DNA of 64,000 bases from Gemmatimonadales bacterium (GCA_040877595.1 JBBDNM010000062.1:10911-74910); one strand, 5' to 3'. Positions 11,499-60,222 are shown, counted from the stretch's first letter. The notes: generated by a model from the sequence alone, not told the origin. Numbers and translations are program-made.

Positions 11499-11587
11499 GC
11501 AATTCCAATGGGCGGGAGGGTCAGCAAGTTTGCACCTGCGGACCCTTATCGGCAAGCAGCTACGACGCGTTCCGGGTGTGAGCTACA

Positions 11588-21400: not shown

Positions 21401-21454
21401 GGGTGCAAAAAGGTGCAAAGGCGCAAAGGTGCAAAGGTGCAAGGGTGCAAGGGG
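21401..21454. repeat. Direct octamer array (ggtgcaaa-type, ~6 units) filling a convergent intergenic gap
   Basis: gggtgcaaaaa ggtgcaaa ggcgcaaa ggtgcaaa ggtgcaag ggtgcaag gggg lies exactly between the MFS stop (21398-21400) and the amidohydrolase stop (21458-21460). No inverted partner arm was seen. Confidence 0.8.
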
Positions 21455-35500: not shown

Positions 35501-35991
35501 TCGGCATCATCATGACGGGAGTCGGCGTGATTTCGCTGGCCGGCGTGGTGGTGAACAATGCTATCGTGCTGCTTGACTACACCGACATTCTGCGCGATCG
35601 CGACGGCCTCACGCGCCGGGAGGCCGTGGTCACCGCCGGTCGCACCCGGTTCCGCCCGGTCGTGCTCACCGCGATCACCACCGTGCTCGGCCTCGTGCCA
35701 CTGGCCATTGGGCTCAACTTTGATTTTCTCGGCCTCTACACGCGCCTGGCGCCGGAATTCTACTGGGGCGGGGAACAGGCCGCCTGGTGGGGCCCGATGG
35801 CCATCGCGGTCATTGCCGGCCTCACCTTCGCGACGTTCCTCACGTTGGTGATTGTGCCGGTGATGTACTCACTGCTGGACGACCTGGACAAAGTCATCAA
35901 GCGGTACTTCCTGCCGCAGGAGACCTCGGAGGCGGCCGTGCCGCACGCGCCGGTTCGACCGAGTCGGGAGACGGAAGCGATTACTGTATAG
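32572..35991 (+). CDS. RND efflux permease (AcrB/HAE1-like, 1139 aa)
   Basis: Typical N-terminus ..SLAIRHPTVVLVMTAIIILTGL... 12-TM pattern with two large loops. ..LGMLVDNAIVVVENI.. and ..LAGVVVNNAIVLLDY... The start shares one base with the MFP stop (TGATG). Confidence 0.92.
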   Translation: MTPHNAPGEFREFGLTSLAIRHPTVVLVMTAIIILTGLSAYITIPKESSPEIVVPMVVVNTIYTGVAPRDIETLLTRPLEEELNTIADVKRITSTSVEGYSSIIVEFDAGMDMDEALQRVREKVDIAKPRLPTAAEEPGIFEINFAQFPIMQVNIAGPYSLVRLREVAEDLQDRIEQIPSVLEVTLSGGLEREVQVDVDLAKLQFYNLAYGDVIDAIRDENVTIPGGSVDVGDMKFLVRVPGQFEATALIADIVVKVAGGRAIYVRDVATVDFGFKERDSYARLDGQSVVSLAISKRAGENIIATAEAVRDVLASREAHFPVGTVVKVTADQSEDIHDMVSSLENNIISGLILVVAVLLFFLGMRTASFVGLAIPMSMLLSFSVMQLTGMTMNMVVLFALILALGMLVDNAIVVVENIYRFVEQGFDRKTAARYAVGEVAVPIIASTLTTLAAFFPLTFWPGIVGEFMKFLPLTLIITLSASLFVALVIVPVLCSLLLELEGARTPPMTPAARWTLIGGGGVAMLIVGSGAWLAPPLLILTGILIWQFHTRVAAPIGAWFMTAALPRIISRYEHLLRWALEHRLRMLAAAAGAMVLAIMAFSVLNAGIEFFPEDIPPATVYVQVEAPAGTRLEATDAMVQGLEAELRALSGSEDFQSVVATSGNRVSQNFGGPSNGSHLATIAVNFVDFQDRRTDGFVTLERMRQTIGRTVAGAHISVEAMQGGPPSGAPVAIEIAGEDPEVLRDLGAEVVRILENSPAYPKLDGLASDMEGGRPELVINVDRERAALWGLNTQDVGFMVRSAINGTEASKYRDGKDEYDITVRLAPAWRSDLSALGDLMLATDDGAQVPLSSVASWHVGTGMGDVRRKDLDRVVSITSDVRAGYNANAVVAEVRELLAPFERELPAGYTFAFGGQQEEQAEAQAFLSAAFVMAVLLIGFILVSQFDSVTKPLIILSSVVLSTIGVLIGLIVFRMPFGIIMTGVGVISLAGVVVNNAIVLLDYTDILRDRDGLTRREAVVTAGRTRFRPVVLTAITTVLGLVPLAIGLNFDFLGLYTRLAPEFYWGGEQAAWWGPMAIAVIAGLTFATFLTLVIVPVMYSLLDDLDKVIKRYFLPQETSEAAVPHAPVRPSRETEAITV

Positions 35992-36060
35992 GGTGTAAGG
36001 TGTAGGGTGTACGGTGTGCCATTCCCTTACACCCTACACCTTACACCCTTCACCTTGTAC
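35991..36060. repeat. Heptamer-unit hairpin (ggtgtaa-type): perfect 21-bp stem, 16-nt loop, plus extra right-arm units; possible bidirectional terminator
   Basis: gggtgtaaggtgtagggtgta (35991-36011) is the exact reverse complement of tacaccctacaccttacaccc (36028-36048). Further units ttcac cttgtac run to 36060. The element fills the gap between the RND stop (35989-35991) and the nitrilase-family stop (36061-36063). Confidence 0.85.
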
Positions 36061-36906
36061 CTAAATCTCAAACCAGCTCTGATATAGATCCGCCCGCCGA
36101 TCCCGCCAAAACAACGTCTTCGCCGGTGACGCCTGGTTCGCATCCAGATCCACGGTGCAGACGAGGAGATCTTCCTCGAGCCGCTTCCCGCGCGCCACCA
36201 CAGCGCCCGCCGCGTCTACCACGAACGATTCGCCGGCAAACGTGAGCTTCTCCTCGACGCCTACGCGGTTGCACAGCGCCGCCACGTAGCCGTTCTGGAA
36301 CGCCGCCGTCCGCACCTCGGCTTCGAACAATCCCTCCGGCCATTCATCCAGCGCGCCGGCCTGCGGAATGATCACGACCTCCGCCCCGCCAAGTGCGAGG
36401 GCACGCATGTACTCCGGGTAGTGACGGTCGTAGCAGATGGCGACAGCGATCTTGCCCACCGCCGTGTCGTACACCGGCGCGCCGGTGTCACCCTGATCGT
36501 AGTACTGCTGCTCGTGAAAACAGGCGTACTCGGTGATATGCAGCATGCGGGTGACGCCGAGCAACGTGCCATCGGCGTCGAACACGGGGGAACTGTCGTA
36601 GCAACGGTCGCCGGCCTGCTCGTACAGGTTGAAGACGGTGACCAGCCCAAGCGCCCTGGCCGCGGCCGCGATGCGTTGGGTCGTGGGGCCGGGAATCGGC
36701 TCCGCCAGCGCCCGCGCCCCGCCGTATCCCTCGTGTTGCGGGAAGAACCGCGTGACCGCGAGCTCGGGAAACGCGATGAGACCGGCACCCAGCGCGTGGG
36801 CGCGACGCATGGCGTCGAGCGCCTTGTCGAGATTGACGGCCGGGTCGGCGTCCGCCGCGAGCTGCGCCAAGGCCAGCGTGACGGTCCGGCCCGCCTCCCG
36901 TCTCAC
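36061..36906 (-). CDS. Carbon-nitrogen hydrolase (nitrilase superfamily)
   Basis: ..VTLALAQL.., ..LIAFPELAVTRF.., ..KIAVAICYDRHYPE.. (catalytic Cys context) and ..IIPQAG... The chosen start is GTG at complement(36904..36906) inside the heptamer array. The upstream 162 codons of the track ORF are rejected because they overlap the hemoglobin gene in another frame. Confidence 0.8.
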   Translation of the reverse strand: MRREAGRTVTLALAQLAADADPAVNLDKALDAMRRAHALGAGLIAFPELAVTRFFPQHEGYGGARALAEPIPGPTTQRIAAAARALGLVTVFNLYEQAGDRCYDSSPVFDADGTLLGVTRMLHITEYACFHEQQYYDQGDTGAPVYDTAVGKIAVAICYDRHYPEYMRALALGGAEVVIIPQAGALDEWPEGLFEAEVRTAAFQNGYVAALCNRVGVEEKLTFAGESFVVDAAGAVVARGKRLEEDLLVCTVDLDANQASPAKTLFWRDRRADLYQSWFEI

Positions 36907-36962
36907 GTCTCCCGTCTCCCGTCTCCCGTCTCCCGTCTCCCGTCTCCCGTCTCCCGTCTCCC
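36897..36962. repeat. Direct heptamer array (cccgtct / GGGAGAC on minus strand), 9 units + 3 nt, no inverted partner
   Basis: Eight consensus units and one variant unit cacgtct (36904-36910). It encodes the hemoglobin tail GRRETGDGRRETGDGRRET. The variant unit supplies the minus-strand GTGA, which is the hemoglobin stop (36903-36905) and the candidate nitrilase start (36904-36906). The minus strand is a (G3N4)n G4 motif. Confidence 0.9.
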
Positions 36963-37421
36963 AACGATCTCCGCCCGCACCGCCCGCAGAATCGCATCCA
37001 ACTCGCGCCGCTCTCGCGTGGGGATGCCGAACGCATCGAACGTGGCAAGCAAATGCTGCACCGCGACGTTCCATACAGCCGGCGTTATCTCCATCTCGGC
37101 GTGCGCGGTCGCCATGTCGAGACCCACGTAGAAGCACGGGCCGCCGGCGGCCGCACAGAGCTGATCGACCACCATCTGGCGAACGTAGCGCATCCCGTCC
37201 GTATCGAGGTGTGCAAAGAACGGTCCCAGGATGGAATCCTGGTGCCAGCGACCCATGAAGTCGTCGACGACGGCGGCGATCGCATCGTAGCCGCCGAGCC
37301 GGCGATACAGCGTGCCGTCGGCTGGGGGGCCGGCCGCGGATGGGGCAGGGGGCGCGGAGGCTGCAGGTCCTGCACCGCGGCAAGCCAGACACATGAGGAC
37401 GCTGAAGAGCACGATGCGCAT
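36903..37421 (-). CDS. Truncated hemoglobin (group I trHb-like) with N-terminal signal-like hydrophobic segment
   Basis: Start MRIVLFSVLMCLACRGAG is ATG at complement(37419..37421), 11 nt after the kinase stop. The core is ..TLYRRLGGYDAIAAVVDDFMGRW..D..LGPFF..D....R.MVDQLCAAAGGPCFYVG.DMATAHAEMEITPAVWNVAVQHLLATFDAFGI.., matching the 2-on-2 globin pattern. Confidence 0.75.
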   Translation of the reverse strand: MRIVLFSVLMCLACRGAGPAASAPPAPSAAGPPADGTLYRRLGGYDAIAAVVDDFMGRWHQDSILGPFFAHLDTDGMRYVRQMVVDQLCAAAGGPCFYVGLDMATAHAEMEITPAVWNVAVQHLLATFDAFGIPTRERRELDAILRAVRAEIVGRRETGDGRRETGDGRRET

Positions 37422-37432
37422 AGACGATCCGC

Positions 37433-39226
37433 CTAGAAGGGAAACAGTTTGCGCAGGCGCGGGAGCGGGTTGAATCGCGGTCGTCGCATGGCCGCCTGCA
37501 CCGCCTGACGGAAGCGCTCGGCCGACGGGTACCGCATCTCGGCGTCGCACGAGGCCGCGGTCAGCAGGACCCGCACGAACTCGGGCGGGACATCGTCCCG
37601 CGCGGCGCGAATATCCGGCAACAGGCCGGCATTCTGCCGCGCCAGAATGGCCTCGATCGTGCCTCTCCCGAACGGCGGCTGCCCGGTGAGGGCAAAGATC
37701 GCCACGAGCGCCAGCGAATAGAGGTCGGCCCTGAGATCCACGGCCTCGCCCATCAGTTGCTCGGGCGCCGCGAACTCCGGCGTGCCCGAGCGGGAGTGGT
37801 GACGCGAAGGTTGCCCGGCGGTCACGGTCAGCGCCAGACCGAAGTCGGTGATGAGGGCGTCGCCCGATCGGCGCTCCAAAAGCACGTTCTCAGGTTTCAG
37901 GTCGCGATGCACCAGCCCACGCTGGTGCGCGTGCTGGAGCGCATCGAGACTCTGCAACAGGAGCTTCACCGCGCGGGCTACTGGCAGCGGTCCGTGCTGG
38001 CGCACATGTTGCGCCACGTTCTCGCCCGGGACGTACGCCATTTCGTACCAGATGAACCCACCGCGCCCGCCCGTGCCGTACACATCCACGATGTGGGGAT
38101 GACTCAGGCTGGCGGCGAGGCGCGCCTCGCGCACGAAGCGCTCCACAACATCCGGATGGGCCGTGAGACCCGTATGCAGCACCTTGAGCGCCACTTCGCG
38201 CTCCAGCGACAGATCCCGCACCAGGTACACGCGACCGAACCCACCCGCGCCGAGTTCGCCCAACAGCTCGTAGTCGTCGCCCAGGGCACGGCGGAGCCGT
38301 TTCTCCGTCTGGGCTGCGTCGTCGCCGGTGGGCGGGCCGACATGGGTGTGGAACTCGAGGTCGCCGAGGTCGGACACCAGGTCCTCGCCCATCTCGTGGG
38401 CGGAGAGGAACCGGGTGCTGGGGCTGGCCTGCAGTGCGCGGAGGATGACACGCTCCAGCGCCTGTGGCGTGCTGGCCCGCCGTTCGCGCGGTGGGATCAA
38501 CAGGGCCGGCTCCGCTTCAGGAGCATGTCCCGTGGCCGCGAAGTACAGCAGGGCGCCCGCGGTGTACACGTCGGCGGTCGGGTCCCCGGCCGCGCCATTG
38601 CGCACTTCCGGCGCAAGGAACGGCAGGGCTTCGTTCGCGACGATCGGGACATCGGCCACATCCATGCAGCGGTTGGCCCACCGCAGGTCCGTGATCACGG
38701 CGCGGCCCAATCGGTCGAGCATGAGGGACTCGGGCGTGATTCGCCGAACCACGATTCCGGTGGAGTGCACGTGGTCGAGCGCGCCGATCAGGTCGCGTGC
38801 CAGCTGGAGTACGGCGGGCAGGGGCCGCGGTGCGCGGTCCACCGCACTGGCCAGGCTTTCGCCGTCAATCCATTTGCTGACGCGGTAGGCCCAGTCGCCC
38901 CGGTACCCGGCGGAGAACACCGGCCGTACGCCCGAATGATCCACCAGTGCGAGCAGCTCGCCTTCGCGCACGAACCAGTCGCGCCCCGCGCCCTGGGGTT
39001 CGAGATGAACTCGCAGGGCCACGCGCCGCTTGAGTACCGCATGGCGGGCCCGGAAGAGCGCGCGCACCTCGTTGGCGGCCACCAGTTCCTCCAACTCGAA
39101 GAACCCGGCGAACACGCCCTCGGCCCGCGTAAACAGGCGGGGAGCGTCAACGGTCGGCAGGACCTGCGGCTGGGACGGCCGAGAGGGTCGAGAAGGTTGG
39201 GAGGGGGCGGCCATGGATGAAAGCAA
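37433..39226 (-). CDS. Tandem pseudokinase + Ser/Thr protein kinase (Hanks type)
   Basis: The C-terminal domain has GAGGFGRV, VALKV, HRDLKPEN, DFG and APE. The N-terminal domain aligns to it with VAANEVRA (no Gly loop), VALRV (Lys to Arg), VVRRITPES (HRD..K..N lost), DLR (DFG) and retained APE. The start is uncertain (ATG 39226 or 39214) because it abuts the divergent gene. Confidence 0.85.
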   Translation of the reverse strand: MLSSMAAPSQPSRPSRPSQPQVLPTVDAPRLFTRAEGVFAGFFELEELVAANEVRALFRARHAVLKRRVALRVHLEPQGAGRDWFVREGELLALVDHSGVRPVFSAGYRGDWAYRVSKWIDGESLASAVDRAPRPLPAVLQLARDLIGALDHVHSTGIVVRRITPESLMLDRLGRAVITDLRWANRCMDVADVPIVANEALPFLAPEVRNGAAGDPTADVYTAGALLYFAATGHAPEAEPALLIPPRERRASTPQALERVILRALQASPSTRFLSAHEMGEDLVSDLGDLEFHTHVGPPTGDDAAQTEKRLRRALGDDYELLGELGAGGFGRVYLVRDLSLEREVALKVLHTGLTAHPDVVERFVREARLAASLSHPHIVDVYGTGGRGGFIWYEMAYVPGENVAQHVRQHGPLPVARAVKLLLQSLDALQHAHQRGLVHRDLKPENVLLERRSGDALITDFGLALTVTAGQPSRHHSRSGTPEFAAPEQLMGEAVDLRADLYSLALVAIFALTGQPPFGRGTIEAILARQNAGLLPDIRAARDDVPPEFVRVLLTAASCDAEMRYPSAERFRQAVQAAMRRPRFNPLPRLRKLFPF

Positions 39227-41354
39227 AGCTAATCTGGTCGGGGGCCGCTGCGCGCTGTATGTTCGCCATCACATGGCCTATCTCCGACTCCACGATCTCC
39301 GTGACCACAGCCGGATCGAGTTCGACGACGTGGCACTGGTCCGCGTTGGTCGCGATCCCTCCTCCGAGTTCGTGGTGGCGGGACCGGGCAGCGAAGTCGT
39401 CTCGGGATCGCATGCCCGGTTCACGCACCGCGACGGTGCGTGGTATGTCGAAGATGCGGGTGGTCGCAACGGCACGTTCGTGAAGGGCACCCGCGTGACG
39501 CCCGAAGCCCCATTGCGGCTCACGGCGGACGTGGAAATCCGTTTTGGCCAGCAGGGGCTGCGGTTTCAGGTCGAGGCCGTGACCAAACGGATCATCGCCG
39601 AGACCATCGCGGAGGCTCCAGTACGCGCGGTGGACCCGGAGAGGACGGCGCCCATGGACGCGGTGGATATCCCGGCGCCGCCGCCGCCACCGAAACCGGT
39701 TCCGCCACCGCCGCCGCCCCCGAAGCCGGCTCCGCCGCCGCCACCCAAGGCGCCAGAACCACCGAAGCCGCCGTCCGGCCTGGTGGTCACGCTGCGGCAC
39801 GGTGCCAGCGGCAACACGTTCACGGGGCAGGGGGGACGCCAGCGGATTGGTCGCGGGCGGGAGTGTGAACTGCGACCGGTGGAGCCGGGTGACGCCGCCG
39901 TGTCGCGGGTGCACGCCGAGATCGTGCAGAAGCCCGATGGATCGGTCGTGTTGCGGGATGCCCAGAGCCGGAACGGCACCCTGCTCAACGGCCAACGTGT
40001 GGAGGGCGAGCGTCCCGTCAACGTCGGGGATCGCATTCAGCTCGGTGATCACGGACCGGAGCTGGTGGTGGAATCCCTCACGGGCGCGGCATCCGTCGCA
40101 GCGTCCGCGGCCCCGCCTCCGCCGCGTCCGGTGGTGGTCTCGGGCGCCCCGAAGGACTCACGACGCTCGTTCGCGGGGAAGGGGCGCACGCTCTTCTTCA
40201 AGGATTTGATTCAGGAGACGGAGCGCAAGAGCCGGGATCGGGTCCGCGCGATTGTGTGGACGTTCGTTGTGCTGCTCGCCGGAGCGGCCGGCGGCCTGTG
40301 GTGGGTTGGTGAGCTCCGCGTGCGGGGGACCGAGGCCGTGCTCGAGGCGCAGCGCCTGGCCGCTGACTCGGTCAGTCAGGCGGCGCAAGCGGAGGTGCGC
40401 CGCCTCACGTCCGAGATCCTTGCCGCGCGCGCCGGGTCGGCACCGGTGGCAGTGCTCGATTCCCTCCGGAACGCGCTGTCCTCCGCCGAACGACGCACCA
40501 CGCAGCTCGAAGGCGCGCTCGCGCGCTCGCAGGCGTTGATCACTGAACAGCTGGCCTCCGGCGATTCGCTGCGCGTGGCCGCCGAGCGGGAAACCGCGCG
40601 GCTGCGGCAGCAGCTCCAATCGGGGGGTGGGAGCGGCTCCAGCGCCGCGCTCGACAGCATTCGCGCGGCGATGCGCGCGGCGGAGGAACGCGCCGCCGAG
40701 CTGGAGGCAGGGCTCCGGGCCGTGCGCGGCGTGGATCTGGCGCACATCGCCGAGCGGAATCAGGCCGCCGTCGGACTGGTCACGGCCTTCTCAGCGGGCG
40801 GCGCCTTTGATGGATCCGGATTCGTGCTCACCGCCTCCGGGTATCTCGTCACCAACCGGCACGTGGTGACGCCCGATGGCCGGCGCGCGGATTCGGTGCA
40901 CGTGATGATGGCGGACCAGCAAACACCGTTCCGCGCGGACATTATCGCCGTCGCGGATGCCCAGGGACCCGATCTGGCGGTGCTCCGGTTGCGTAGCTAC
41001 TCCGGCGCGCGCATCGCGGCAGTGGATTGGCGCGGCGATGCGGCACGCCAGGGTGAACCGGCTGCCTCCATTGGCTTCCCGACGGGCATTGCCGCCGCCT
41101 ACGACCAGACCACCCGCACCGTGCGCACCTCCCTGAGCGGTGGATACTTCTCAAAAGTGTCCGAAGACATGATCCAGTACGATGGATTCACGGTCCCGGG
41201 GTCGAGCGGCAGTCCGATCTTCAACGCCTCCGGGACGGTCGTGTCGGTGCATGCCCGGGGCTTGCGTGAAGGGCCGGGCTTGGCGTTCACCGTGCCCATT
41301 CGTCTGGTGCTTCCCCTCTTGCCAGCGGAGGCGCGTCGCGAACTGGGGCTGTGA
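39213..41354 (+). CDS. FHA-FHA / TM / coiled-coil / trypsin-like (S1) serine protease
   Basis: FHA1: ..VGRDPSSEFVV..VSGSHARF..WYVEDAGGRNGTFVKG... Pro-rich linker PPPPPKPVPPPPPPPKPAPPPPPK. FHA2: ..IGRGRECEL..VSRVHAEI..LRDAQSRNGTLLNG... TM: IVWTFVVLLAGAAGGLWWV. About 150 aa of Ala/Arg/Glu/Leu-rich helix. Protease triad contexts TNRHV, DLAVLRL and GSSGSPIF. The start is ATG 39213 or ATG 39273. Confidence 0.85.
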   Translation: MDESKANLVGGRCALYVRHHMAYLRLHDLRDHSRIEFDDVALVRVGRDPSSEFVVAGPGSEVVSGSHARFTHRDGAWYVEDAGGRNGTFVKGTRVTPEAPLRLTADVEIRFGQQGLRFQVEAVTKRIIAETIAEAPVRAVDPERTAPMDAVDIPAPPPPPKPVPPPPPPPKPAPPPPPKAPEPPKPPSGLVVTLRHGASGNTFTGQGGRQRIGRGRECELRPVEPGDAAVSRVHAEIVQKPDGSVVLRDAQSRNGTLLNGQRVEGERPVNVGDRIQLGDHGPELVVESLTGAASVAASAAPPPPRPVVVSGAPKDSRRSFAGKGRTLFFKDLIQETERKSRDRVRAIVWTFVVLLAGAAGGLWWVGELRVRGTEAVLEAQRLAADSVSQAAQAEVRRLTSEILAARAGSAPVAVLDSLRNALSSAERRTTQLEGALARSQALITEQLASGDSLRVAAERETARLRQQLQSGGGSGSSAALDSIRAAMRAAEERAAELEAGLRAVRGVDLAHIAERNQAAVGLVTAFSAGGAFDGSGFVLTASGYLVTNRHVVTPDGRRADSVHVMMADQQTPFRADIIAVADAQGPDLAVLRLRSYSGARIAAVDWRGDAARQGEPAASIGFPTGIAAAYDQTTRTVRTSLSGGYFSKVSEDMIQYDGFTVPGSSGSPIFNASGTVVSVHARGLREGPGLAFTVPIRLVLPLLPAEARRELGL

Positions 41355-42082
41355 ACTGCGTCGTGGTGGTGCATCGGTCGCAGAACATCATCAACCTCGC
41401 GTCCATCGTGCGGTTGATGAAGAACTATGGCCTGCGCGACCTCCGGCTGGTGGAACCAGCCGAGTTCGATGTCCGCCGCATCGAGGGGGTGGCGCACCAG
41501 TCGGGTGATGTGCTCAAGCGCGTGCAGGAATTCCCCACGCTCGACGCTGCCCTGGCCGACTGCACGCACGTCGTGGCCCTCACCGCGCGCGGACGTACGG
41601 CCAAGCGGAACTACCAGCGCCCCCGTGACGCGGCGCCCGAGATCCTCGCCGAGAGTGCTCACGGTCTCGCGGCGCTCGTACTGGGCCCGGAGGACAAGGG
41701 ATTATCCAATGACGACCTGGACCGCTGCCACCGCGCTGTCGTGATTCCGACGCATCCGGACTATCCCTCCCTCAACGTCGCGCAGGCATTCAACGTCATG
41801 GCGTACGAGCTGTTCGTGGCCGCCGATGCCGCCGCGCCGCTCAAGCCGGCCAAGCGGGAGGCCGAACCCGCCAGCCGCGATCAGGTGGAACGCCTCTTCG
41901 TGGACGTTGAAGCGGCGTTGCACCGCGTGGATTTCTTCAAGGCGCGCGAACCCGAGCTGATCCTGCGTTCGATCCGCACGATGGTGCACCGGACGCCGCT
42001 CGACGGGCGGGAGACGACCCTGCTGCGGGCGATGGCCCTGGAAGTGGTGCGCTATCTCGATCGCGTCGAGGCGCGCGCATGA
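41351..42082 (+). CDS. SpoU/TrmH-family RNA 2'-O-methyltransferase (TrmJ/LasT-like)
   Basis: ..VVVVHRSQNIINLASIVRLMKNYGL.., ..ALVLGPEDKGLSNDDL.. and ..IPT...YPSLNVAQAFNVMAYEL.. are SPOUT motifs. GTGA overlap with the protease gene and ATGA overlap with the following kinase. Confidence 0.8.
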   Translation: MNCVVVVHRSQNIINLASIVRLMKNYGLRDLRLVEPAEFDVRRIEGVAHQSGDVLKRVQEFPTLDAALADCTHVVALTARGRTAKRNYQRPRDAAPEILAESAHGLAALVLGPEDKGLSNDDLDRCHRAVVIPTHPDYPSLNVAQAFNVMAYELFVAADAAAPLKPAKREAEPASRDQVERLFVDVEAALHRVDFFKAREPELILRSIRTMVHRTPLDGRETTLLRAMALEVVRYLDRVEARA

Positions 42083-44061
42083 AGGAGCGGCCCAAGCGCT
42101 GCACCCAGTGCGGGCGCGAAGCGCCGGGGGACCTGTTCCGCTGCCCCAACTGTCAGGTGTGGTTGCCGGCGCAGAGTGCCACCGACCGGCTGGCGGCGCG
42201 TGTGTCGGCCGCGTTGGGCGAGGGGTACCGTCTGGAAGAACAGATGGGGCGCGGCGGGTGCGCGATGGTGTTTCGCGTGCGGGACCTGCGTCTCGAACGG
42301 GACTTGGCCATCAAGGTCCTGTTGCCTGCCTTGGCCGGTAGCGAGGAACTGGCGGCGCGCTTCCGGCGCGAGACGCGTGTCGCCGCCGGATTGTCGCATC
42401 CCAATATCGTCCCCATCTATTTCCTGGGACCTGACGACGGGTTGCCGTGGTTTGCCATGCCACGCGTCCATGGGGAGTCGCTCGCCGACCGCATGAAGCG
42501 TGAGGGCCCCCAGCCGTATGCCGTGGCCCTGGGCATTGCGCGCGATGTCGCCGCGGCCCTCGATGCCGCACACGCCACCGGCGTGATCCACCGTGACGTC
42601 AAGCCGGCCAACATCCTGCTCGAACTGGCCACCGGGCGGGCGCTGCTCACGGACTTCGGGATCGCCAAGGCGATGAGCGGCGACGCCAACTTCCGCACGG
42701 CGTCCGGCATCGTGGTGGGCACGCCGTACTATGTGTCGCCCGAGCAGGCGGCCGCCGACCCGAACGTGGACGGCCGGAGCGACGTGTACAGTCTCGCGGT
42801 GGTGCTGTACGAAATGCTGGCGGGGGAGCCGCCGTTCACCGGGCCGTCGGCGCAGGCGGTATTTGCGGCCCATCAGGCCGGAACCGTACCGCCTCTCGTC
42901 ACCAAGCGGCCGGACCTGCGTCCTGCCGTGGCTGACACGCTGATCGCGGGCTTGGCCAAGGACCCGGCACATCGCCCAGGCACGCCGAGCGAGCTGGTGG
43001 CCCTCATCGAGCGGGCGCAGGGCCGGGCCAGTCTGCGCCGCTCCGGCGCCACCATCGTGCCGCGGATGTCCCTGGACGATCCGCACTTGTTCCGGTCGGC
43101 TGACGCCGCCGGTCACGATCCCCTGAATCCCGAGGGTGAGTTGCCGGTGTGGATCGAGGCGGTGGCCGAGACGGAGCGAACCATCGAAGCGGCCCTGGCC
43201 CAGGGGCCGGAGCAGGTTGTGGAGGCGGTGGCGCGCCTTGCCCGACATACGGGACTTGAGCGCGCCGCGTATCGCAACCCGGTGGAGACCGCCCTCCAGC
43301 GTCTGGGTGAACGTGCGGAACTGGTCGCCATACTCATTGATGTGTGGCAGCGCGGGGTGGGCCGCGATCCCGCCACCATCGAGCAGCATGTGCGCGCGCT
43401 GTTGCCTGCGGCGCGCCGAGCCCTGGTGGACCTGGCCGACCAGCGCCGTGATCCGGCGGTGTTTCTGCTGCTGGACCGGTTGGGGCTGCTGGATGAGGCC
43501 GCCGGCCGCTCGTTCGCCGAGCATCGCAGTCCCGCGGTTGCGCAGGCGTTTGCCGAAGCGCTCAGGGAGAGCACCCGGGCGGGCGCCGTGGTGGAAGGAT
43601 GGTTGCTGCGGTTGGCCCGACACGAATCCGCGGCCGTGCGGGTCGCGGCGGGGTCCACGGCCGCGGCAAGGCGCGGGGCGGTGGCCACGGTACTGGGGCG
43701 GCACCTGGTTTCGGACAAACAGCCCGTGGTGCGCCGGGCCGGACTCGCGGTCCTCGGTGCGTCGGGTCGCCGGGACGCCATCGTGGATCTGGATGGGACG
43801 CTCAAGCGGGGGGATCGGGATGACAAGCTCGCGGCGATCGAAGCGCTGGCAGCCCTGGGCTTGGCCGAGGTCGTGCCAGTCCTGGCCGCCATCCTCAGCG
43901 GACGTTCGATGTTTGGTGGGTCGGGTCACGCCGTGCTTCGGCGGGCGGCTGCCCGGGCCCTGTCCACACTCCCGCACGAGGCCGCCCGAACGGCCCTGGC
44001 CGCCTGCCGAGACGATAAGGACGACGAGGTCCGGGCGCTGGCCCGTTCGGTAGTTGTGTGA
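42079..44061 (+). CDS. Ser/Thr protein kinase with N-terminal zinc ribbon and C-terminal HEAT-like repeats
   Basis: CTQCG..x..CPNC ribbon. Kinase motifs GRGGCAMV, AIKVL, HRDVKPANILL, DFG and SPEQ. The C-terminal ~300 aa are Ala/Arg/Leu-rich repeats (..DDEVRALARS.., ..AIEALAALG..). Confidence 0.88.
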   Translation: MKERPKRCTQCGREAPGDLFRCPNCQVWLPAQSATDRLAARVSAALGEGYRLEEQMGRGGCAMVFRVRDLRLERDLAIKVLLPALAGSEELAARFRRETRVAAGLSHPNIVPIYFLGPDDGLPWFAMPRVHGESLADRMKREGPQPYAVALGIARDVAAALDAAHATGVIHRDVKPANILLELATGRALLTDFGIAKAMSGDANFRTASGIVVGTPYYVSPEQAAADPNVDGRSDVYSLAVVLYEMLAGEPPFTGPSAQAVFAAHQAGTVPPLVTKRPDLRPAVADTLIAGLAKDPAHRPGTPSELVALIERAQGRASLRRSGATIVPRMSLDDPHLFRSADAAGHDPLNPEGELPVWIEAVAETERTIEAALAQGPEQVVEAVARLARHTGLERAAYRNPVETALQRLGERAELVAILIDVWQRGVGRDPATIEQHVRALLPAARRALVDLADQRRDPAVFLLLDRLGLLDEAAGRSFAEHRSPAVAQAFAEALRESTRAGAVVEGWLLRLARHESAAVRVAAGSTAAARRGAVATVLGRHLVSDKQPVVRRAGLAVLGASGRRDAIVDLDGTLKRGDRDDKLAAIEALAALGLAEVVPVLAAILSGRSMFGGSGHAVLRRAAARALSTLPHEAARTALAACRDDKDDEVRALARSVVV

Positions 44062-44148: not shown

Positions 44149-44736
44149 ATGGCGAAGTGGGTCAGGCCCATGGCCAAGGCAAGCGGCGTGCTGATGACCG
44201 GCGCCCTCCTTGTGGTCCTGGTCGGCGCCATGCAGACCAGCCAAACCGCGCCGTCGGCGACGATGCAGTCGTTCGAGCCCTTCCAGGCCCCGCGCGACGT
44301 GGACACCACCAACCTCCGTGGCCCGCGCCAGCCGATTCTTTACCGTCACGACATTCATGCCGGCCAGTACCAGATGGATTGCCGGTACTGCCACGGGTAC
44401 GTCGAGGTCAGCAGCAGTCCCGGCCTGCCCTCCACGGCGGTCTGCATGGGCTGTCATATGGTCGTCCAGACCCAGAGCCCGGAAGTACAGAAGCTGGCGG
44501 AGGCCCATAACAGCGGCACGCCCGTGGAGTGGGTAGAGGTCCACGAGCTCGCGCAGTTCGTCCGCTTCCCACACCAGCGGCACGTCGTGGCCGGCCAGGT
44601 GGCCTGCCAGGAGTGCCATGGCCCGGTGCAAGAGATGGTGCAGGTCTGGCAGTTCAGCTCGCTCAAGATGGGTTGGTGCCTTGACTGCCATAAAGAGCGC
44701 GGTCAGACCACCGACTGCACGGCCTGCCACTACTAA
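44149..44736 (+). CDS. actA: Alternative complex III subunit ActA (pentaheme cytochrome c)
   Basis: Five CxxCH motifs (CRYCH, CMGCH, CQECH, CLDCH, CTACH) and an N-terminal TM anchor. First gene of the act-type order. Confidence 0.88.
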   Translation: MAKWVRPMAKASGVLMTGALLVVLVGAMQTSQTAPSATMQSFEPFQAPRDVDTTNLRGPRQPILYRHDIHAGQYQMDCRYCHGYVEVSSSPGLPSTAVCMGCHMVVQTQSPEVQKLAEAHNSGTPVEWVEVHELAQFVRFPHQRHVVAGQVACQECHGPVQEMVQVWQFSSLKMGWCLDCHKERGQTTDCTACHY

Positions 44737-44748
44737 GAGGACCGACCA

Positions 44749-47736
44749 ATGACCGACGGGATGGACCGACGGAAGTTCCTCAAGGTGCTGGGCGTCACCG
44801 GTGGCGGTACCGCGGCGTTGGCGGGCTGCTCCACGGATGACGTGGCCAAGCTCATTCCGTATATGGTGCCGGTGGAAGACCAGATCCCAGGGGTCGCCAC
44901 CTACTACGCCTCGACCTGCCGCGGATGTGCCGCCGGGTGCGGCGTCCACGTCAAGGTCCGCGAGGGCCGGGCGGTGAAGCTCGAGGGCAACCCCGAGGCG
45001 CCCATCAATCGCGGCAAGCTCTGCGCCCGCTCGCAGGCCTCGCTCCAAGCCACGTATCACCCCGATCGCAACCGCTCCGCGATGATGCGCCAGGGCGAGG
45101 GGCTCGCGCCGGCCGAGTGGGAAGCGGCGCTGGCGGAAGTCGCCACCCGCCTGCAGGCGGCTCCGGCCGGGTCCGTGTGGTTCATGCACGGCACGCAGAC
45201 GGGCTCGCTGGACGCGTTGATCGGGGAGTTCGTCACGGCCATCGGCGGTCGCCGCCTGGTGTTCGAGGCATTTGCCCACGAAGCGGTGCGGCACGCCAGC
45301 CGTGAGACGTTCGGCCGCGACGAAGTGCCGCTGTATCGGTTTGCCGACGCGCAGTACATCCTGTCGTTCGGCGCCGACTTCCTCGAAACGTTCATGAGCC
45401 CCGTCGAGTACACGCGGGGCTTTGCCGACGCCCACGGCTACCGCGACGGGCGCATGGCCAAGTACGTGCATATCGAGCCGCGCATGAGCGGCACGGCCAT
45501 GAGCGCCGACGAGTGGATCGCGCCGACGCCCGGCTCGGAAGGCACGCTGGCCCTGGCGATGGCGCAGGTGATCGTCGAACGCGGGCTCGGCCGCCCGCCG
45601 GCGGACGCGCGCTCATTGCGGGCGGCCCTGGCGTCGTTCACGCCCGACCTGGCGGCGCAGGCCACCGACATTGATGCCGCCACGATCACGCGGCTCGCCC
45701 AGGAGTTTGCGGCGGGCCCAAGCGTGGCCCTGCCGGGCGGCATCGGGACCCAGCATGCCGACGCGCATCGCACGGCGGCCGCGGTCAACGTGCTCAACTA
45801 CGTGGCCGGCAACATCGGCCACACGGTCGAGTACGGCCACGGACTCCGCCAGGGCGATGGCTACGCCACGTTGCGGGAGTTCACGGTCGCTGCCGAGGCG
45901 GGCAGCATTCAGGTGTTGCTGATCCACGACGCGAATCCGGTGCATGCGAGCCCGAGCGCGCTGAATGTGAGCGGTGCACTCGGCCACATTCCGTTCGTCG
46001 CGAGCTTCAGCCGGTTCCAGGACGAGACGTCGGCCTGGGCCCACGTGGTCCTGCCCGATCACGATGCGATGGAACAGTGGAATGACTGGCAGCCCCGCGC
46101 CGGCGTGCAGATGCTGCTCCAGCCGGCCATGGCGCCGGTGTTCGACACGCGCCAGACCGGTGATGTCCTGCTCGACCTGAGCCGCCGGATGGGTCGCACC
46201 CCGCGCCAGGCCACCTACAAGGAATACGTGCAGGCGCGCTGGGCCGATCTGCAGCGTACCCTCGGCGATCGCGCGCCGTTCGACACGTTCTGGCGCAACG
46301 CCCTCCAGCGGGGCGGGGTATGGACCGAAGCGCGTCCCGCCACCGTACGGTTAGCGGCGGGCGCCACACGCGTCACGAATCCCGCGTGGGCACCGACCGA
46401 AGGCCAACTCACGCTGATCGCCTACCCATCGTCCACGTTCTATGACGGTCGCGATGCGCACGTGCCGTGGCTGCAGGAACTGCCCGATCCCGTCACCAAG
46501 ATGACCTGGGGATCGTGGGTCGAGATTCATCCCGACACGGCTGACCGGTTCGGGATCATGGAAGGTGACGTGGTGCAGGTGACGTCGGCGCAGGGCACGG
46601 TGGCAGTGCCCGCCTACCTCTACCCCGGCTTGCGCCCCGATGTGGTCGCGATGCCGCTGGGCCAGGGGCATACGGCCTACACGCGCTACGCCACCGGCGT
46701 CGGTGTGAACACGTGGTCGCTGTTGCCGGGTGAAGCGGCGGTGTTCGGTGGTGCCCAGCATTACGTGTCGGTGTCGCTCACGCGCACCAGCCGCCACGAG
46801 CGCCTGGCCAAGACCGAGGGCCGCAATCGCCAGCTGGGTCGCGGGATCGCGCAGGCCGTCACGTTGGGCGGCATCGCCCACGGGGCGCTGGACCACCCGT
46901 TCCACGTGGCGCACGCGGCCCCGGTGCCCGAGCGCGAGGAACACCTGCTTGATGAAGTGGCCGCGGCCCAACGGCGCGCCACGGACTATGGCCCCTACGC
47001 CCTGCGCAACACGCGCTGGGGCATGACGATTGACCTGTCGCGCTGCACGGGCTGTAACGCCTGTGTGGCGGCGTGCAGCGCCGAGAACAACGTGCCGTAC
47101 ATCGGTGCCGAGCAGGTACGCCGCGGCCGCGCGATGCAGTGGATCCGTATCGAGCGGTACTTCGAGGGCGGCGAGCACGGCGAGCCGCTGGAGACCCGCT
47201 TCGTGCCGATGCTGTGCCAGCACTGCGGCAACGCCCCCTGCGAGCCGGTCTGCCCGGTGTTCGCGGCGTACCACACGCCGGACGGCCTGAACGGCCAGGT
47301 GTACAACCGCTGCGTCGGCACGCGGTACTGCGGCAACAACTGTCCGTACAAGGTCCGCTACTTCAACTGGTATGACATGTCGGAACCCGGCGCGCCCAAG
47401 TTTGCCTGGCCGGACCCGATGCATTGGATGCTCAATCCCGACGTGACCGTGCGGTCCCGGGGCGTCATGGAGAAGTGCACGTTCTGCGTCCAGCGTATTC
47501 GCGGGGCACAACACCGGGCCGCGACGGAGGGTCGCGCGCTGGTGGATGGCGAAGTGCGCACCGCGTGCCAACAGACCTGCCCGGCGGACGCCATCACCTT
47601 CGGCAACATGATGGACCCGGAAGCCCAGGTCACGCGGACGGCCGCCGACCCGCGCGGGTATCGCGTGCTCGAGGGACTCAACACCAAGCCCGCGGTGACG
47701 TACCTGATGAAGGTACGCCACCTCGAGGAGGCCTGA
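44749..47736 (+). CDS. actB: Alternative complex III subunit ActB (molybdopterin-oxidoreductase-like + 4Fe-4S ferredoxin fusion)
   Basis: Tat signal MDRRKFLKVLGV. N-terminal MopB-like domain with ..CRGCAAGCGV... C-terminal Fe-S cluster motifs CTGCNACVAAC, CQHCGNAPCEPVCP, CVGTRYCGNNCPY and CTFC..C..CP. Confidence 0.9.
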   Translation: MTDGMDRRKFLKVLGVTGGGTAALAGCSTDDVAKLIPYMVPVEDQIPGVATYYASTCRGCAAGCGVHVKVREGRAVKLEGNPEAPINRGKLCARSQASLQATYHPDRNRSAMMRQGEGLAPAEWEAALAEVATRLQAAPAGSVWFMHGTQTGSLDALIGEFVTAIGGRRLVFEAFAHEAVRHASRETFGRDEVPLYRFADAQYILSFGADFLETFMSPVEYTRGFADAHGYRDGRMAKYVHIEPRMSGTAMSADEWIAPTPGSEGTLALAMAQVIVERGLGRPPADARSLRAALASFTPDLAAQATDIDAATITRLAQEFAAGPSVALPGGIGTQHADAHRTAAAVNVLNYVAGNIGHTVEYGHGLRQGDGYATLREFTVAAEAGSIQVLLIHDANPVHASPSALNVSGALGHIPFVASFSRFQDETSAWAHVVLPDHDAMEQWNDWQPRAGVQMLLQPAMAPVFDTRQTGDVLLDLSRRMGRTPRQATYKEYVQARWADLQRTLGDRAPFDTFWRNALQRGGVWTEARPATVRLAAGATRVTNPAWAPTEGQLTLIAYPSSTFYDGRDAHVPWLQELPDPVTKMTWGSWVEIHPDTADRFGIMEGDVVQVTSAQGTVAVPAYLYPGLRPDVVAMPLGQGHTAYTRYATGVGVNTWSLLPGEAAVFGGAQHYVSVSLTRTSRHERLAKTEGRNRQLGRGIAQAVTLGGIAHGALDHPFHVAHAAPVPEREEHLLDEVAAAQRRATDYGPYALRNTRWGMTIDLSRCTGCNACVAACSAENNVPYIGAEQVRRGRAMQWIRIERYFEGGEHGEPLETRFVPMLCQHCGNAPCEPVCPVFAAYHTPDGLNGQVYNRCVGTRYCGNNCPYKVRYFNWYDMSEPGAPKFAWPDPMHWMLNPDVTVRSRGVMEKCTFCVQRIRGAQHRAATEGRALVDGEVRTACQQTCPADAITFGNMMDPEAQVTRTAADPRGYRVLEGLNTKPAVTYLMKVRHLEEA

Positions 47737-47737
47737 G

Positions 47738-49075
47738 GTGATGGCTACCGGGAAGGCCCCTCAGCCCACGTACGCCGAGATCACCCGCGATATCGCGGCC
47801 ACCCTCGGCAATCCGGGCAAAGGGTATTACGCCCTGCTCACGACCGCCGTCGTGCTCTTCCTGGCGGGCGCGATCACGGTCCTGCTCGAGGTGCGCTATG
47901 GCCTCGGGCTCGCGGGCTACCGCACGCCGGTCTTCTGGGGTGTGTACATCACGACCTTCGTCTTCTGGGTCGGCATCGCGCACTCGGGCACGCTGATCTC
48001 GGCGATCCTGTACCTGTTCCGGTCGGCGTGGCGCACGGCGGTGTACCGCACCGCGGAAGCGATGACAGTCTTCGCGGTGCTCACCGCCGGCCTGTTTCCG
48101 CTGATCCATGTCGGGCGCATGTGGTACGCGTACTGGCTGATCCCGTACCCGAACCAGCGGCAACTGTGGGTCAACTTCAAGTCGCCGCTCATCTGGGACG
48201 TGTTCGCCGTCTCGACGTATCTGACCGTGTCCACGCTCTTCCTGATGGTCGGCCTGATCCCGGATATCGCGTCGCTGCGTGACAAGGCGACCGGCTGGCG
48301 CAAGAAGCTGTACCAGGCCACCGCACTCGGCTGGCGCGGCACCGACCAGCAGTGGCGCCACTACACCAAGGCCTACATGTACATGGCCGCCCTGGCCACG
48401 CCGCTCGTGCTCTCCGTGCACAGCGTCGTGTCCTGGGACTTCGCCATGGCCATCGTGCCCGGCTGGCACGCTACCATCTTCGCCCCGTACTTCGTGGCGG
48501 GCGCCATTTACTCCGGCGTCGCGATGGTGATCACCCTGCTGGTGCCCATCCGGAAGGTGTTCAAGCTTGAGCGGTACATCCACGAAGATCATTTTGAAAA
48601 CCTGAGCAAGCTGATGCTCCTGACGGGCATGATCGTCGCGTATGCCTACGTCACGGAGTACTTCATCGCCTGGTACAGCGGGAACCCGTTCGAACAGGCC
48701 TCGTTCTGGAACCGCGCGTTCGGCGATTACTGGTGGGCCACCTGGACCATGCTGATCTGCAACGGCCTCCTGCCGTTGTTCCTGTGGTCCCGGAAGATCC
48801 GTCGCAGCATCCCGGCGCTGTTTGTCCTGTCGCTCTTCGTCAACCTCGGGATGTGGTTCGAGCGGTTCGTCATCATCGTCGTCTCATTGTCGTTCGAGTA
48901 TGAGCCCTATGCGATGGGCCATTACTCGGCCACCTGGGCGGACTGGCTGGTGCTGTCCGGCAGCTTCGGATGGTTCTTCATGTGGTTCCTGCTGTTCGCC
49001 AAGAACTTCCCGACCGTCTCGATCACCGAGGTGAAAGAAGTGATCCCGATGCCACGGAAGGGAGGAGCGCACTGA
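47738..49075 (+). CDS. actC: Alternative complex III subunit ActC (NrfD/PsrC-like membrane subunit)
   Basis: 445 aa polytopic NrfD-like protein. The start is GTG 47738 or ATG 47741, 2-5 nt after the actB stop. Confidence 0.88.
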   Translation: MMATGKAPQPTYAEITRDIAATLGNPGKGYYALLTTAVVLFLAGAITVLLEVRYGLGLAGYRTPVFWGVYITTFVFWVGIAHSGTLISAILYLFRSAWRTAVYRTAEAMTVFAVLTAGLFPLIHVGRMWYAYWLIPYPNQRQLWVNFKSPLIWDVFAVSTYLTVSTLFLMVGLIPDIASLRDKATGWRKKLYQATALGWRGTDQQWRHYTKAYMYMAALATPLVLSVHSVVSWDFAMAIVPGWHATIFAPYFVAGAIYSGVAMVITLLVPIRKVFKLERYIHEDHFENLSKLMLLTGMIVAYAYVTEYFIAWYSGNPFEQASFWNRAFGDYWWATWTMLICNGLLPLFLWSRKIRRSIPALFVLSLFVNLGMWFERFVIIVVSLSFEYEPYAMGHYSATWADWLVLSGSFGWFFMWFLLFAKNFPTVSITEVKEVIPMPRKGGAH

Positions 49076-49581
49076 TGTCGGCGCATCCCGGCGGCGTGCT
49101 CGCCGCCTTCCTCCATGAAGACGCGGCGGTGTCGGCCATCCGCTCGCTCAAGGAACTGGGCTACAAGGACTTCACGGTCTATTCGCCGGCGCCGAATCAC
49201 GCGCTGATGGAGGCCGTGGGCCACAAGATCAGCCCGGTCCGGCTCTGGACCCTGGTCGGCGGTCTGGTTGGCGTGACCTCGGGGTTTGCCATGACCATCT
49301 GGATGTCGCTGGATTATCCGATCGTGGTGGGGGGCAAGCCGATTCCGTCGTGGATCCCGTACGTCGTGATCGGGTTCGAGTTGACCATCCTGATTGGCGC
49401 CATCGCCACGCTGACGGGGTTGGCGGTGCACATCCTGCTGACCCGGAAGGCGGCCGCCTACGATCCCCGGTTTACCGATGACCAGATCGGCGTGTTCGTG
49501 CCGTGCCCCACGGAACGGCGCGGCGCCGTGGAACAGATGCTCAATGCCGCGGGAGCGGTGGAGGTGCGCGTTGCCGCGTAA
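49075..49581 (+). CDS. actD: Alternative complex III subunit ActD (DUF3341-like)
   Basis: MSAHPGGVLAAFLHEDAAVSAIRSLKELGYKDFTVYSP.. followed by two TM helices. The ATG shares a base with the actC stop (TGATG). The upstream 35 codons of the track ORF are rejected. Confidence 0.85.
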   Translation: MSAHPGGVLAAFLHEDAAVSAIRSLKELGYKDFTVYSPAPNHALMEAVGHKISPVRLWTLVGGLVGVTSGFAMTIWMSLDYPIVVGGKPIPSWIPYVVIGFELTILIGAIATLTGLAVHILLTRKAAAYDPRFTDDQIGVFVPCPTERRGAVEQMLNAAGAVEVRVAA

Positions 49582-49585
49582 ACCC

Positions 49586-50137
49586 ATGCTCGCCGTCATC
49601 GCCGCGGTCCTGCTGCTGAGCGGATGCACCCGAGACCAGTGGCAGCGGTTCCCGGGGCCGGATGAAGCCGTCAAGCTGATCCCGCTCTTTGCCACCATGA
49701 CCAGGGGCCTCGCGGTGCAGCCGTACAAGTGGCCCACGCCGCGCCCGCCGGTCGAAGGCACCGTCCCGGTGACGGGGGGCGAGGCGCCGACCCCAATTAC
49801 CAACCGGCCCGACGATCTCGCGCGCATCAACGCGCTGCGGAACCCGGTGCAGATGACCGCGCTGTCGCTCGAACGGGGCCGCGAGCGGTACGACATCTAC
49901 TGCACGCCCTGTCACGGTGCGATGGGTGATGGTCAGGGGCCGGTGCCGGTCGGCACCAACCTGCCGTGGGTGCCGAGCCTGCTGACGCCGATCGCAGCGC
50001 GGCATTCCGACGGCATGCTGTATGCCATCACGCGCCACGGCCGGGGCCTGATGCCTGCCTATGGTGATCGCCTGCGCGGCGAGGACCGGTGGCACGTGGT
50101 CAACTACGTGCGCCAGCTCCAGGGAGCCGCCCGATGA
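49586..50137 (+). CDS. actE: Alternative complex III subunit ActE (monoheme cytochrome c lipoprotein)
   Basis: Lipobox LLLSG|C and a single CTPCH heme motif. An alternative TTG start at 49571 would add MPRKP. Confidence 0.85.
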   Translation: MLAVIAAVLLLSGCTRDQWQRFPGPDEAVKLIPLFATMTRGLAVQPYKWPTPRPPVEGTVPVTGGEAPTPITNRPDDLARINALRNPVQMTALSLERGRERYDIYCTPCHGAMGDGQGPVPVGTNLPWVPSLLTPIAARHSDGMLYAITRHGRGLMPAYGDRLRGEDRWHVVNYVRQLQGAAR

Positions 50138-60122: not shown

Positions 60123-60130
60123 CGAGAGCT

Positions 60131-60222
60131 GGGAGATGGGAGACGGGAGACGGAACACAGCCGCCATCTCCCGTCTCCTATCTCCCGTCTCCCGTCTCTC
60201 GTCTCCCGTCTCCCGTCTCTCG
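60131..60222. repeat. GGGAGAC heptamer element: 3-unit left arm, 10-nt loop, 8-unit right arm (asymmetric hairpin + direct array)
   Basis: gggagatgggagacgggagacgg (60131-60153) pairs with ccatctcccgtctcctatctccc (60164-60186) with 2 mismatches in 23 bp. Five more gtctc(c/t)c units run to 60222 and end exactly at ATG 60223. It uses the same unit as the array at 36897-36962. Confidence 0.88.

Follow-up and report, generated by a model that had tools for sequence, protein, structure and literature searches.

We identified, in a 64,000-nucleotide stretch of DNA from a Gemmatimonadales bacterium (GCA_040877595.1 JBBDNM010000062.1:10911-74910; hereafter the window), two divergently transcribed genes that could make up a phospho-signaling module. 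One encodes a tandem pseudokinase-kinase and the other a protein in which two FHA domains are joined, through a transmembrane (TM) helix and a helical stalk, to an HtrA-like protease. Our analysis gives a probability of roughly 60% to a partnership in which the FHA domains read threonine phosphorylation and couple it to a protease outside the membrane. The uncharacterized pair has been retained by 56 or more species of a phylum that is poorly studied and for the most part uncultured. If the proposal is correct, Ser/Thr phosphorylation in the cytoplasm would be linked directly to proteolysis in the envelope, and bacteria would offer an instance of a pseudokinase-kinase tandem that has its own dedicated partner. 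The two genes belong to a group of six, tightly packed in two arms, in which we mapped the following features:

36061-36906, minus strand: nitrilase-superfamily enzyme (Pfam CN_hydrolase, 2.8e-45)
36890-36962, minus strand: G-rich heptamer array of GGGAGAC (TRF, x10.4, 8 perfect units)
36903-37421, minus strand: truncated hemoglobin, trHb (Pfam Bac_globin, 3e-08)
37433-39214, minus strand: tandem pseudokinase-kinase, 593 aa (two Pfam Pkinase stretches, 1.8e-53)
39215-39272, no strand: divergent intergenic region of 58 bp (read from the sequence)
39273-41354, plus strand: FHA-FHA-TM-helical stalk-protease (Pfam FHA, 3.5e-32, two domains; Trypsin_2, 1.6e-22)
41351-42082, plus strand: SpoU/TrmJ-family methyltransferase (Pfam SpoU_methylase, 4e-24)
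42079-44061, plus strand: Zn-ribbon-kinase-HEAT protein (Pfam Pkinase, 3.4e-40; HEAT_2, 2.5e-08)

Much of this layout had been described in an earlier, sequence-only reading of the window. Its six genes, with their positions and domains, were borne out by Pfam, NCBIfam and direct reading of the sequence, as was its inventory of two kinases, a pseudokinase domain and two FHA readers fused to a protease (motifs and Pfam). The junctions were also as it had them: the kinase and trHb genes are separated by 11 nt (TAG, 11 nt, ATG), and stop and start codons overlap between the trHb and nitrilase genes (GTGA, 36903-36906), at the end of the FHA-protease gene (GTGA, 41351-41354) and ahead of the kinase-HEAT gene (ATGA, 42079-42082). 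The divergent start codons, at 39214 and 39273, lie 58 bp apart, within the 0-60 bp given for the two arms.

The conservation of the pair emerged from a comparison of gene order across species. An alignment of FHA-protease homologues (n = 24) was used to scan one genome per species, which yielded 229 relatives, and synteny was counted in the best 80 of them (species-level loci), with smaller denominators for individual genes where the flank was too short. Nearly all of the 80 loci are labeled Gemmatimonadota, Gemmatimonadales or Gemmatimonadaceae; the exceptions are two loci of "bacterium HR33" and one of an "uncultured bacterium". Nine window proteins were compared with the 80 loci by tblastn, every neighborhood being anchored on the FHA-protease gene, and the HEAT half of the kinase-HEAT protein and the trHb core were compared in the same way at E 1e-3. 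Genes of the relatives were placed from the tblastn anchors and public gene calls. These took the place of two crude gene finders based on G+C at third codon positions (GC3), neither of which detected the trHb or the nitrilase gene and the first of which also failed on the FHA-protease gene.

A tandem kinase gene lies upstream of and divergent from the FHA-protease gene in 56 of the 64 informative loci, defined as those with at least 2.5 kb of sequence upstream of the FHA-protease. In 35 of the 56 the two genes are within 300 bp of each other, and the divergent gap in these 35 other species measures 49-243 bp. The remaining 21 kinase-positive loci have one gene between the pair, either a Zn-dependent alcohol dehydrogenase or a YdjM-like membrane protein, the latter in the most distant group. 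In this group (39-42% protein identity), the kinase is kept in 12/12 of the informative loci, and the nitrilase, RND and TrmJ genes are kept in the flanks of none of them. The pair is thus retained where every other neighbor has changed, a conservation that exceeds background synteny. As far as sampled, the two-gene divergent module is limited to Gemmatimonadota.

The sequence-only reading had proposed conservation of gene order beyond close relatives as the check on its six-gene group. The pseudokinase-kinase and the FHA-protease passed that check, and the trHb, nitrilase, TrmJ and kinase-HEAT genes failed it.

The motifs of the tandem kinase divide it into two unequal halves. Domains were called with Pfam and NCBIfam, structures were assessed with AlphaFold models, Foldseek and profile or sequence matches to the PDB, and residue conservation was read from 55 tandem-kinase orthologues and 119 FHA-protease sequences. 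The C-terminal domain carries GAGGFG, VALK, HRDLKPEN, DFG and APE, all invariant in the alignment (A2), and by these catalytic motifs is classed as a canonical PknB-like Hanks kinase. The N-terminal domain shares 27-30% identity with canonical kinases (E 1e-15 to 1e-24), has no G-loop and reads VALR for VAIK, V/LRR for HRD and DLR for DFG. The degraded motifs are common to the 55 orthologues and mark the domain as a predicted pseudokinase. The AlphaFold model has two kinase folds, with PknB as the top Foldseek match (TMt 0.90-0.93) and the PknB-GarA complex 6i2p among the matches. No hydrophobic, membrane-spanning segment was found by hydropathy and no sensor domain by Pfam.

When 1.84 billion representatives were searched by HMMER with the pseudokinase domain as query, six matches scored above about 200 bits (50%-identity cluster representatives, several of them fragments); beyond these came remote multi-kinase proteins at 26-33% identity, with scores summed over several domains. 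The search provided no functional clue. The 120 proteins recovered with the kinase-HEAT query included no tandem-kinase orthologues, consisting of single-domain kinases and a few remote multi-kinase proteins, and the bacterial kinase and pseudokinase surveys in the literature searched make no mention of such a tandem or of a Gemmatimonadota family.

The partner protein, for which a 100% identical NCBI protein exists from a Gemmatimonadales metagenome-assembled genome, begins with FHA1 (residues 1-105) and FHA2 (residues 170-270), matched by PF00498 in two stretches at 111 bits against a cut-off of 20.7. The phosphothreonine-binding residues of both domains (G26/R27, S44/H47 and N66/G67 in FHA1; G193/R194, S211/H214 and N234/G235 in FHA2) are invariant or nearly so in the alignment, and both are accordingly classed, from sequence, as FHA-type phosphothreonine readers. 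Several hydroxyl residues in the linkers are conserved as well: T111 in 112/119 sequences, T125 in 113/119 (with M or L at position +3 in 116/119), and S299 and T306 in 119/119. All four are in segments with a predicted local distance difference test (pLDDT) score below 50, i.e., of predicted disorder. The linker between the FHA domains varies widely in length among homologues, and in the window a 30-nt tandem repeat (39678-39742, plus strand) encodes its Pro-rich (PPPPKP) part.

An invariant RRSFxGKGxTxFF motif stands just ahead of the sole hydrophobic segment detected by hydropathy (residues 326-346). The translation has a net positive charge on the N-terminal side of this TM helix, which places the N-terminus inside the cell. 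Thus, the FHA domains are predicted to be cytoplasmic and the stalk and protease periplasmic. The AlphaFold model (mean pLDDT 76, with the three globular domains above 85-90) has long helices at 306-486, including a helical stalk of about 150 aa after the TM helix. The protease domain follows (residues 500-693), with a His530/Asp567/Ser645 triad that is invariant in the 119 sequences. It matches HhoA, HtrA, HTRA1 and DegP in PDB profile searches (1e-16 to 1e-9) and DegP, DegQ, HTRA1 and DegS in Foldseek (TMt 0.74-0.82). Neither Pfam nor the AlphaFold model revealed a PDZ domain, and the chain ends right after the protease at residue 693. The scores also fall short of the NCBIfam cut-offs for the HtrA family (degP_htrA_DO, 59.3 vs 416.2; DegS, 31.3 vs 423). 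The protease therefore has an HtrA-like fold and triad but, with no PDZ and sub-cut-off scores, lies outside the HtrA/DegP family definition.

In the mechanism we propose, the active kinase domain would phosphorylate conserved threonines, the candidates being T125 (as T125-x-x-M/L) and T306 in the linkers of the FHA protein and/or sites in the pseudokinase domain. The FHA domains would then bind the resulting phosphothreonines, in cis or in trans, and the changed docking or oligomeric state would be relayed through the single TM helix and the stalk and determine how active the HtrA-like protease is outside the membrane. The net effect would be inside-out control of envelope proteolysis. We propose a phosphothreonine relay because of the analogy with the PknB-MviN pseudokinase-FhaA pathway and with the self-binding switch of GarA and OdhI.

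In the first of these systems, PknB phosphorylates the pseudokinase domain of MviN, which then recruits the FHA protein FhaA (PMC12599244). The features of the known system that would have counterparts here are a Hanks kinase that marks a pseudokinase threonine, an FHA protein that docks on it and the control of an envelope process (PMC12599244). Further, FHA2 of the window protein matches FHA structures of FhaA (TB39.8) at 1e-9. The window pair differs in that its pseudokinase forms the N-terminal part of a soluble protein that also contains the active kinase, its FHA reader is a membrane protein bearing an extracytoplasmic protease, and there is no MviN/MurJ, PASTA or FhaA orthology (NCBIfam FhaB/FipA, 93 vs a cut-off of 125).

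GarA and OdhI are small soluble metabolic regulators that operate as self-binding phospho-switches. They share with the window protein an FHA domain and a flexible segment with a conserved threonine, a potential phosphosite and ligand for the FHA domain of the same chain. The window protein reaches 40 bits with the OdhI model (cut-off 200), and self-binding is suggested here by the conservation of T125-x-x-M/L. With HtrA proteases (DegS, DegP/DegQ, HhoA, HTRA1) the protein shares its protease fold and triad and, as in DegS, a predicted inner-membrane anchor with a periplasmic protease; in place of the PDZ, however, it has the stalk and a 320-aa cytoplasmic FHA module. The type VI secretion system (T6SS) pathway PpkA-Fha1/TagH-PppA also pairs a Hanks kinase with an FHA protein that switches an envelope machine. 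The TagH model matches FHA1, but at 76.7 vs a cut-off of 120, and the neighborhood contains no T6SS genes or PP2C phosphatase. JAK-type tandems likewise place a pseudokinase before a kinase in a single chain, and bacterial proteins with multiple Pkinase domains are common among the remote matches; yet the relation to either is no closer than the kinase fold, at 26-33% identity. On model scores, the pair falls under none of the defined kinase/FHA systems compared (TagH of the T6SS, FhaB/FipA, OdhI, MAD6 and PglW). Each part comes from a known superfamily and is well understood, and the arrangement of Hanks kinase, FHA reader and HtrA protease is absent from the literature searched.

Several points weigh against a dedicated kinase and FHA-protease module. 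Both the direction of signaling and the phosphosites are ones that we infer. No PP2C phosphatase is encoded in the 22 kb around the pair. The overlapping stop and start codons would fit a genuine shared transcript of the three plus-arm genes (FHA-protease, trmJ and kinase-HEAT). Moreover, 8/64 loci have no kinase gene in the 10 kb around that of the FHA-protease, so the FHA-protease can be encoded apart from the tandem kinase. In five of these eight loci (L037, L045, L047, L051 and L060) it lies directly downstream of an E2/E1-beta-like operon, whose open reading frames (ORFs), about 3.5 kb upstream of the match, resemble by eye the E1-beta and lipoyl-E2 subunits of a 2-oxoacid dehydrogenase. 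These neighbors are noteworthy because the FHA proteins GarA and OdhI regulate 2-oxoglutarate dehydrogenase. At the level of gene order, the link between kinase and FHA-protease is strong but not obligatory. Two distant species (L062 9621-9965 and L072 9633-9956, both plus strand) have a further ORF upstream of the FHA-protease, with repeated DRRSGVDRR motifs, that is not in the window.

A bolder form of the proposal would make the pair an inside-out device of the whole phylum, in which cytoplasmic threonine phosphorylation, read by FHA domains on the protease's own chain, switches an HtrA-type protease across the membrane. We entertain this extension only tentatively and think it rather doubtful. 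A literature text search returned no paper joining FHA with a serine protease or HtrA, and the single publication it matched to Gemmatimonadetes, threonine kinase and FHA together is a broad survey of polymorphic toxin systems. We know of no description in bacteria of inside-out control of extracytoplasmic proteolysis through phosphothreonine and FHA.

The same two proteins could also work in the opposite direction. The periplasmic protease and stalk would sense the state of the envelope (e.g., misfolded proteins), and the FHA domains would recruit or release the tandem kinase to act on other cytoplasmic targets. The kinase has neither a sensor nor a membrane segment of its own, so its input must come from a partner; the HtrA-like fold acts as a sensor-effector in DegS and DegP; and the conservation of the pair serves this explanation equally well. 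On the other hand, the protease has no PDZ, which is the sensing domain of DegS, and the fully conserved triad argues that proteolysis itself is the output. We consider outside-in signaling unlikely.

The adjacency of the plus-arm genes could be functional in the window lineage only, with the FHA-protease, trmJ and kinase-HEAT genes transcribed together and coupled in translation, and the second kinase supplying phosphothreonine ligands for the FHA domains. The GTGA and ATGA overlaps favor such coupling, the first of them being present also in a second assembly (L082), and the kinase-HEAT protein, which has a CxxC...CxxC motif at residues 8-25, is classed as an active kinase by its intact Hanks motifs GRGGCA, LAIK, HRDVKPAN, DFG and SPE. 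A 78%-identical relative has the order TrmJ-kinase-ActA, and is the only one that does. Among the approximately 35 full-length homologues of the family, one at 47% identity immediately precedes ActA, beside alternative complex III genes, with TrmJ 6 kb away, and a 44% homologue has an unrelated neighborhood. The kinase-HEAT gene is absent from 80/80 loci, and its HEAT half has no match there. Overlapping codons are, in addition, common in compact high-GC genomes (the window has a G+C content of 65-71%) and an automatic result of deletions. Such a lineage-restricted unit is quite improbable, and the kinase-HEAT gene is a bystander, which was probably inserted ahead of the alternative complex III operon in this lineage. 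An analogy of the kinase-HEAT protein with PknG was considered and rejected: the kinase domain is of the PknB type, PknG does not appear in the list of its 60 best PDB matches, and the resemblance is architectural only.

TrmJ is likewise a bystander and not part of the protease module. The SpoU protein just reaches the model of the TrmJ/YjtD subfamily (TIGR00050, 169.1 vs 167.15) and falls below the TrmJ equivalog (NF011694, 121 vs 280). Its gene directly follows that of the FHA-protease in 1/69 loci and lies within 10 kb of it in 17/41. In other loci 1-8.6 kb separates the two, with GHMP-kinase, GH38 and ABC-transporter genes in between; the content of the interval is a GHMP-kinase gene or 7-8 kb with a GH38 mannosidase, a peptide ABC transporter, a GHMP kinase and a heparinase-like gene. 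The stable neighbor of TrmJ is the alternative complex III operon downstream, the order TrmJ-ActA-ActB being kept in seven loci. In the window lineage, deletions probably removed 1-8 kb of sugar-metabolism genes and so brought trmJ against the stop codon of the protease gene.

The sequence-only reading had gone further and joined all six genes into one circuit, in which the heme protein, informed by redox state, NO or O2, would instruct kinases that gate periplasmic proteolysis and RNA methylation. We give this circuit very little chance, as synteny has already largely refuted it. Besides the tight packing of the six genes in the window, it has in its favor that the trHb gene, where present (four loci and the window), is always directly downstream of the tandem kinase. 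Those four loci are, however, 4 of 80; TrmJ adjoins the FHA-protease in 1/69; kinase-HEAT is present in 0/80; and in other species the slot between kinase and nitrilase holds a SAM (S-adenosylmethionine) methyltransferase, a GT4 glycosyltransferase, both or nothing. The trHb gene is a bystander in a variable slot.

The protein itself probably belongs to group 1 of the truncated hemoglobins, as judged by Pfam (34.3 vs 21) and by PDB sequence matches to trHbN and the Chlamydomonas protein (1e-11, with the proximal His aligned). In the window it carries the lipoprotein signal MRIVLFSVLMCLAC and a C-terminal tail encoded by the repeat. A lipoprotein signal peptide and a Pro/Ala-rich tether were read in the window protein and in 9/9 homologues, which predicts a location outside the cytoplasm. 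Tyr B10 is usually conserved in truncated hemoglobins; the position is occupied by Met in the window protein and by Leu or Ile in its homologues. An exported trHb is a poor candidate for feeding a gas or redox signal to a kinase without a membrane segment, which speaks against a redox-informed kinase circuit. The co-occurrence of a heme protein, an RNA methyltransferase and two kinases is an outcome of local genome compaction and should not be pursued as a redox-to-translation circuit.

The nitrilase gene is a neighbor from the local backbone rather than a member of the module. Among the 42 loci with room for it beyond the kinase, it follows directly in 10, at 150-700 bp in four, at 0.7-3 kb in 11 and further away in one, and it is absent from 16; it is thus retained in 26/42, with differing genes between it and the kinase. 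Its membership in the nitrilase superfamily holds (PF00795, 155 vs 23.2), and its best NCBIfam match, AguB, is below the cut-off (177.7 vs 410.25), with the other models lower still. Orthologues are 273-274 aa long. The start codon of the window gene is uncertain, because the GTG at 36906 falls inside the repeat.

That repeat accounts for the overlap of the trHb and nitrilase genes. The final 24 codons of trHb and the GTG start of the nitrilase fall inside the (GGGAGAC)n array, which translates as GDGRRET in all three frames, and one variant unit with a G-to-T change, GTGAGAC, is the source of the TGA stop as well as of the GTG start. Contig JBBEAC010000019.1 (GCA_040899675.1; L081) corresponds to window 29259-51354 at 99.93%, with two mismatches and one 14-nt gap. 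It has six perfect units (7600-7700) vs eight in the window, and its trHb and nitrilase are annotated as a single 448-aa Bac_globin and CN_hydrolase protein. When unit number was varied in simulation, n mod 3 = 2 gave separate genes with a GTGA overlap, n mod 3 = 0 an in-frame trHb-nitrilase fusion and n mod 3 = 1 a trHb with a long out-of-frame tail. Two relatives with trHb beside nitrilase (L038 and L043) have no array and stop-to-start distances of 1-3 nt, and the 120 best trHb homologues include no trHb-nitrilase fusion. Thus, the GTGA is present in the sequence as the sequence-only reading had it, but the variable repeat, the array-free relatives and the lack of fused homologues make it a by-product of an unstable repeat and not an evolved coupling. 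Owing to this heptamer array, near-identical genomes can be annotated with either two genes or one "fusion protein".

G-rich heptamer repeats of the GGGNATC type have been described for Xanthomonas and Nostoc (PMC4692102). The window array resembles them as a G-rich heptamer in short-unit intergenic arrays and differs from them in its unit (GGGAGAC), in its Gemmatimonadota host and in running into two reading frames. Similar elements are present elsewhere in the window. The same unit recurs at 60125-60222 as an inverted pair (GGGAGAC/GTCTCCC) between two co-directional ORFs, a long GGTGTAA-type hairpin of heptamer-like repeats lies at 35989-36056 between the convergent RND and nitrilase stop codons, and an 8-mer array occupies 21409-21450. 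A metagenome scan for the repeat junction recovered no further alleles of the locus; it returned an unrelated contig (L089, 3500-3790) in which an identical 30-mer, with the same variant units, is part of a multi-array between thiS and thiG.

A role of the kinase and protease in anti-phage defense or conflict has hardly any probability: PADLOC matches both kinases to PD-T4-6, mad6 and PglW and the protease domain to RT-Protease_XI, NCBIfam MAD6 and PglW alignments span both kinase-like domains, and multi-kinase proteins with TIR or EAD exist, but the matches are generic for kinases and trypsin (MAD6, 228.6 vs 460; PglW, 105.6 vs 990), the chromosomal position is fixed throughout the phylum, with an RND efflux operon on one side and respiratory or sugar genes on the other, and is not in a variable island, and the flanks contain no methylase, nuclease, BREX or other defense partners.

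The wider gene order, from public calls on the near-identical contig, is a TetR-OEP-MFP-RND efflux operon, convergent with the nitrilase gene, followed by the six genes and the alternative complex III operon. The 58-bp divergent gap presumably holds both promoters of the core pair. A sigma-70 promoter scan gave 0 sites, including no consensus match in this gap, and terminator-like sites were no commoner than in shuffled sequence; operon boundaries cannot, therefore, be drawn from the sequence. In an Rfam scan of 35-45 kb, no family reached its gathering score. The alternative complex III operon (window 44149-51354, plus strand) encodes a multiheme cytochrome, a molybdopterin/FeS subunit, NrfD, ActD, a cytochrome c and a second NrfD-like protein. 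At the other end, a single open frame of at least 3851 codons with a GC3 of 0.89 occupies window 1-11555 on the minus strand and runs off the window start; its sole Pfam match is one Big_2 domain.

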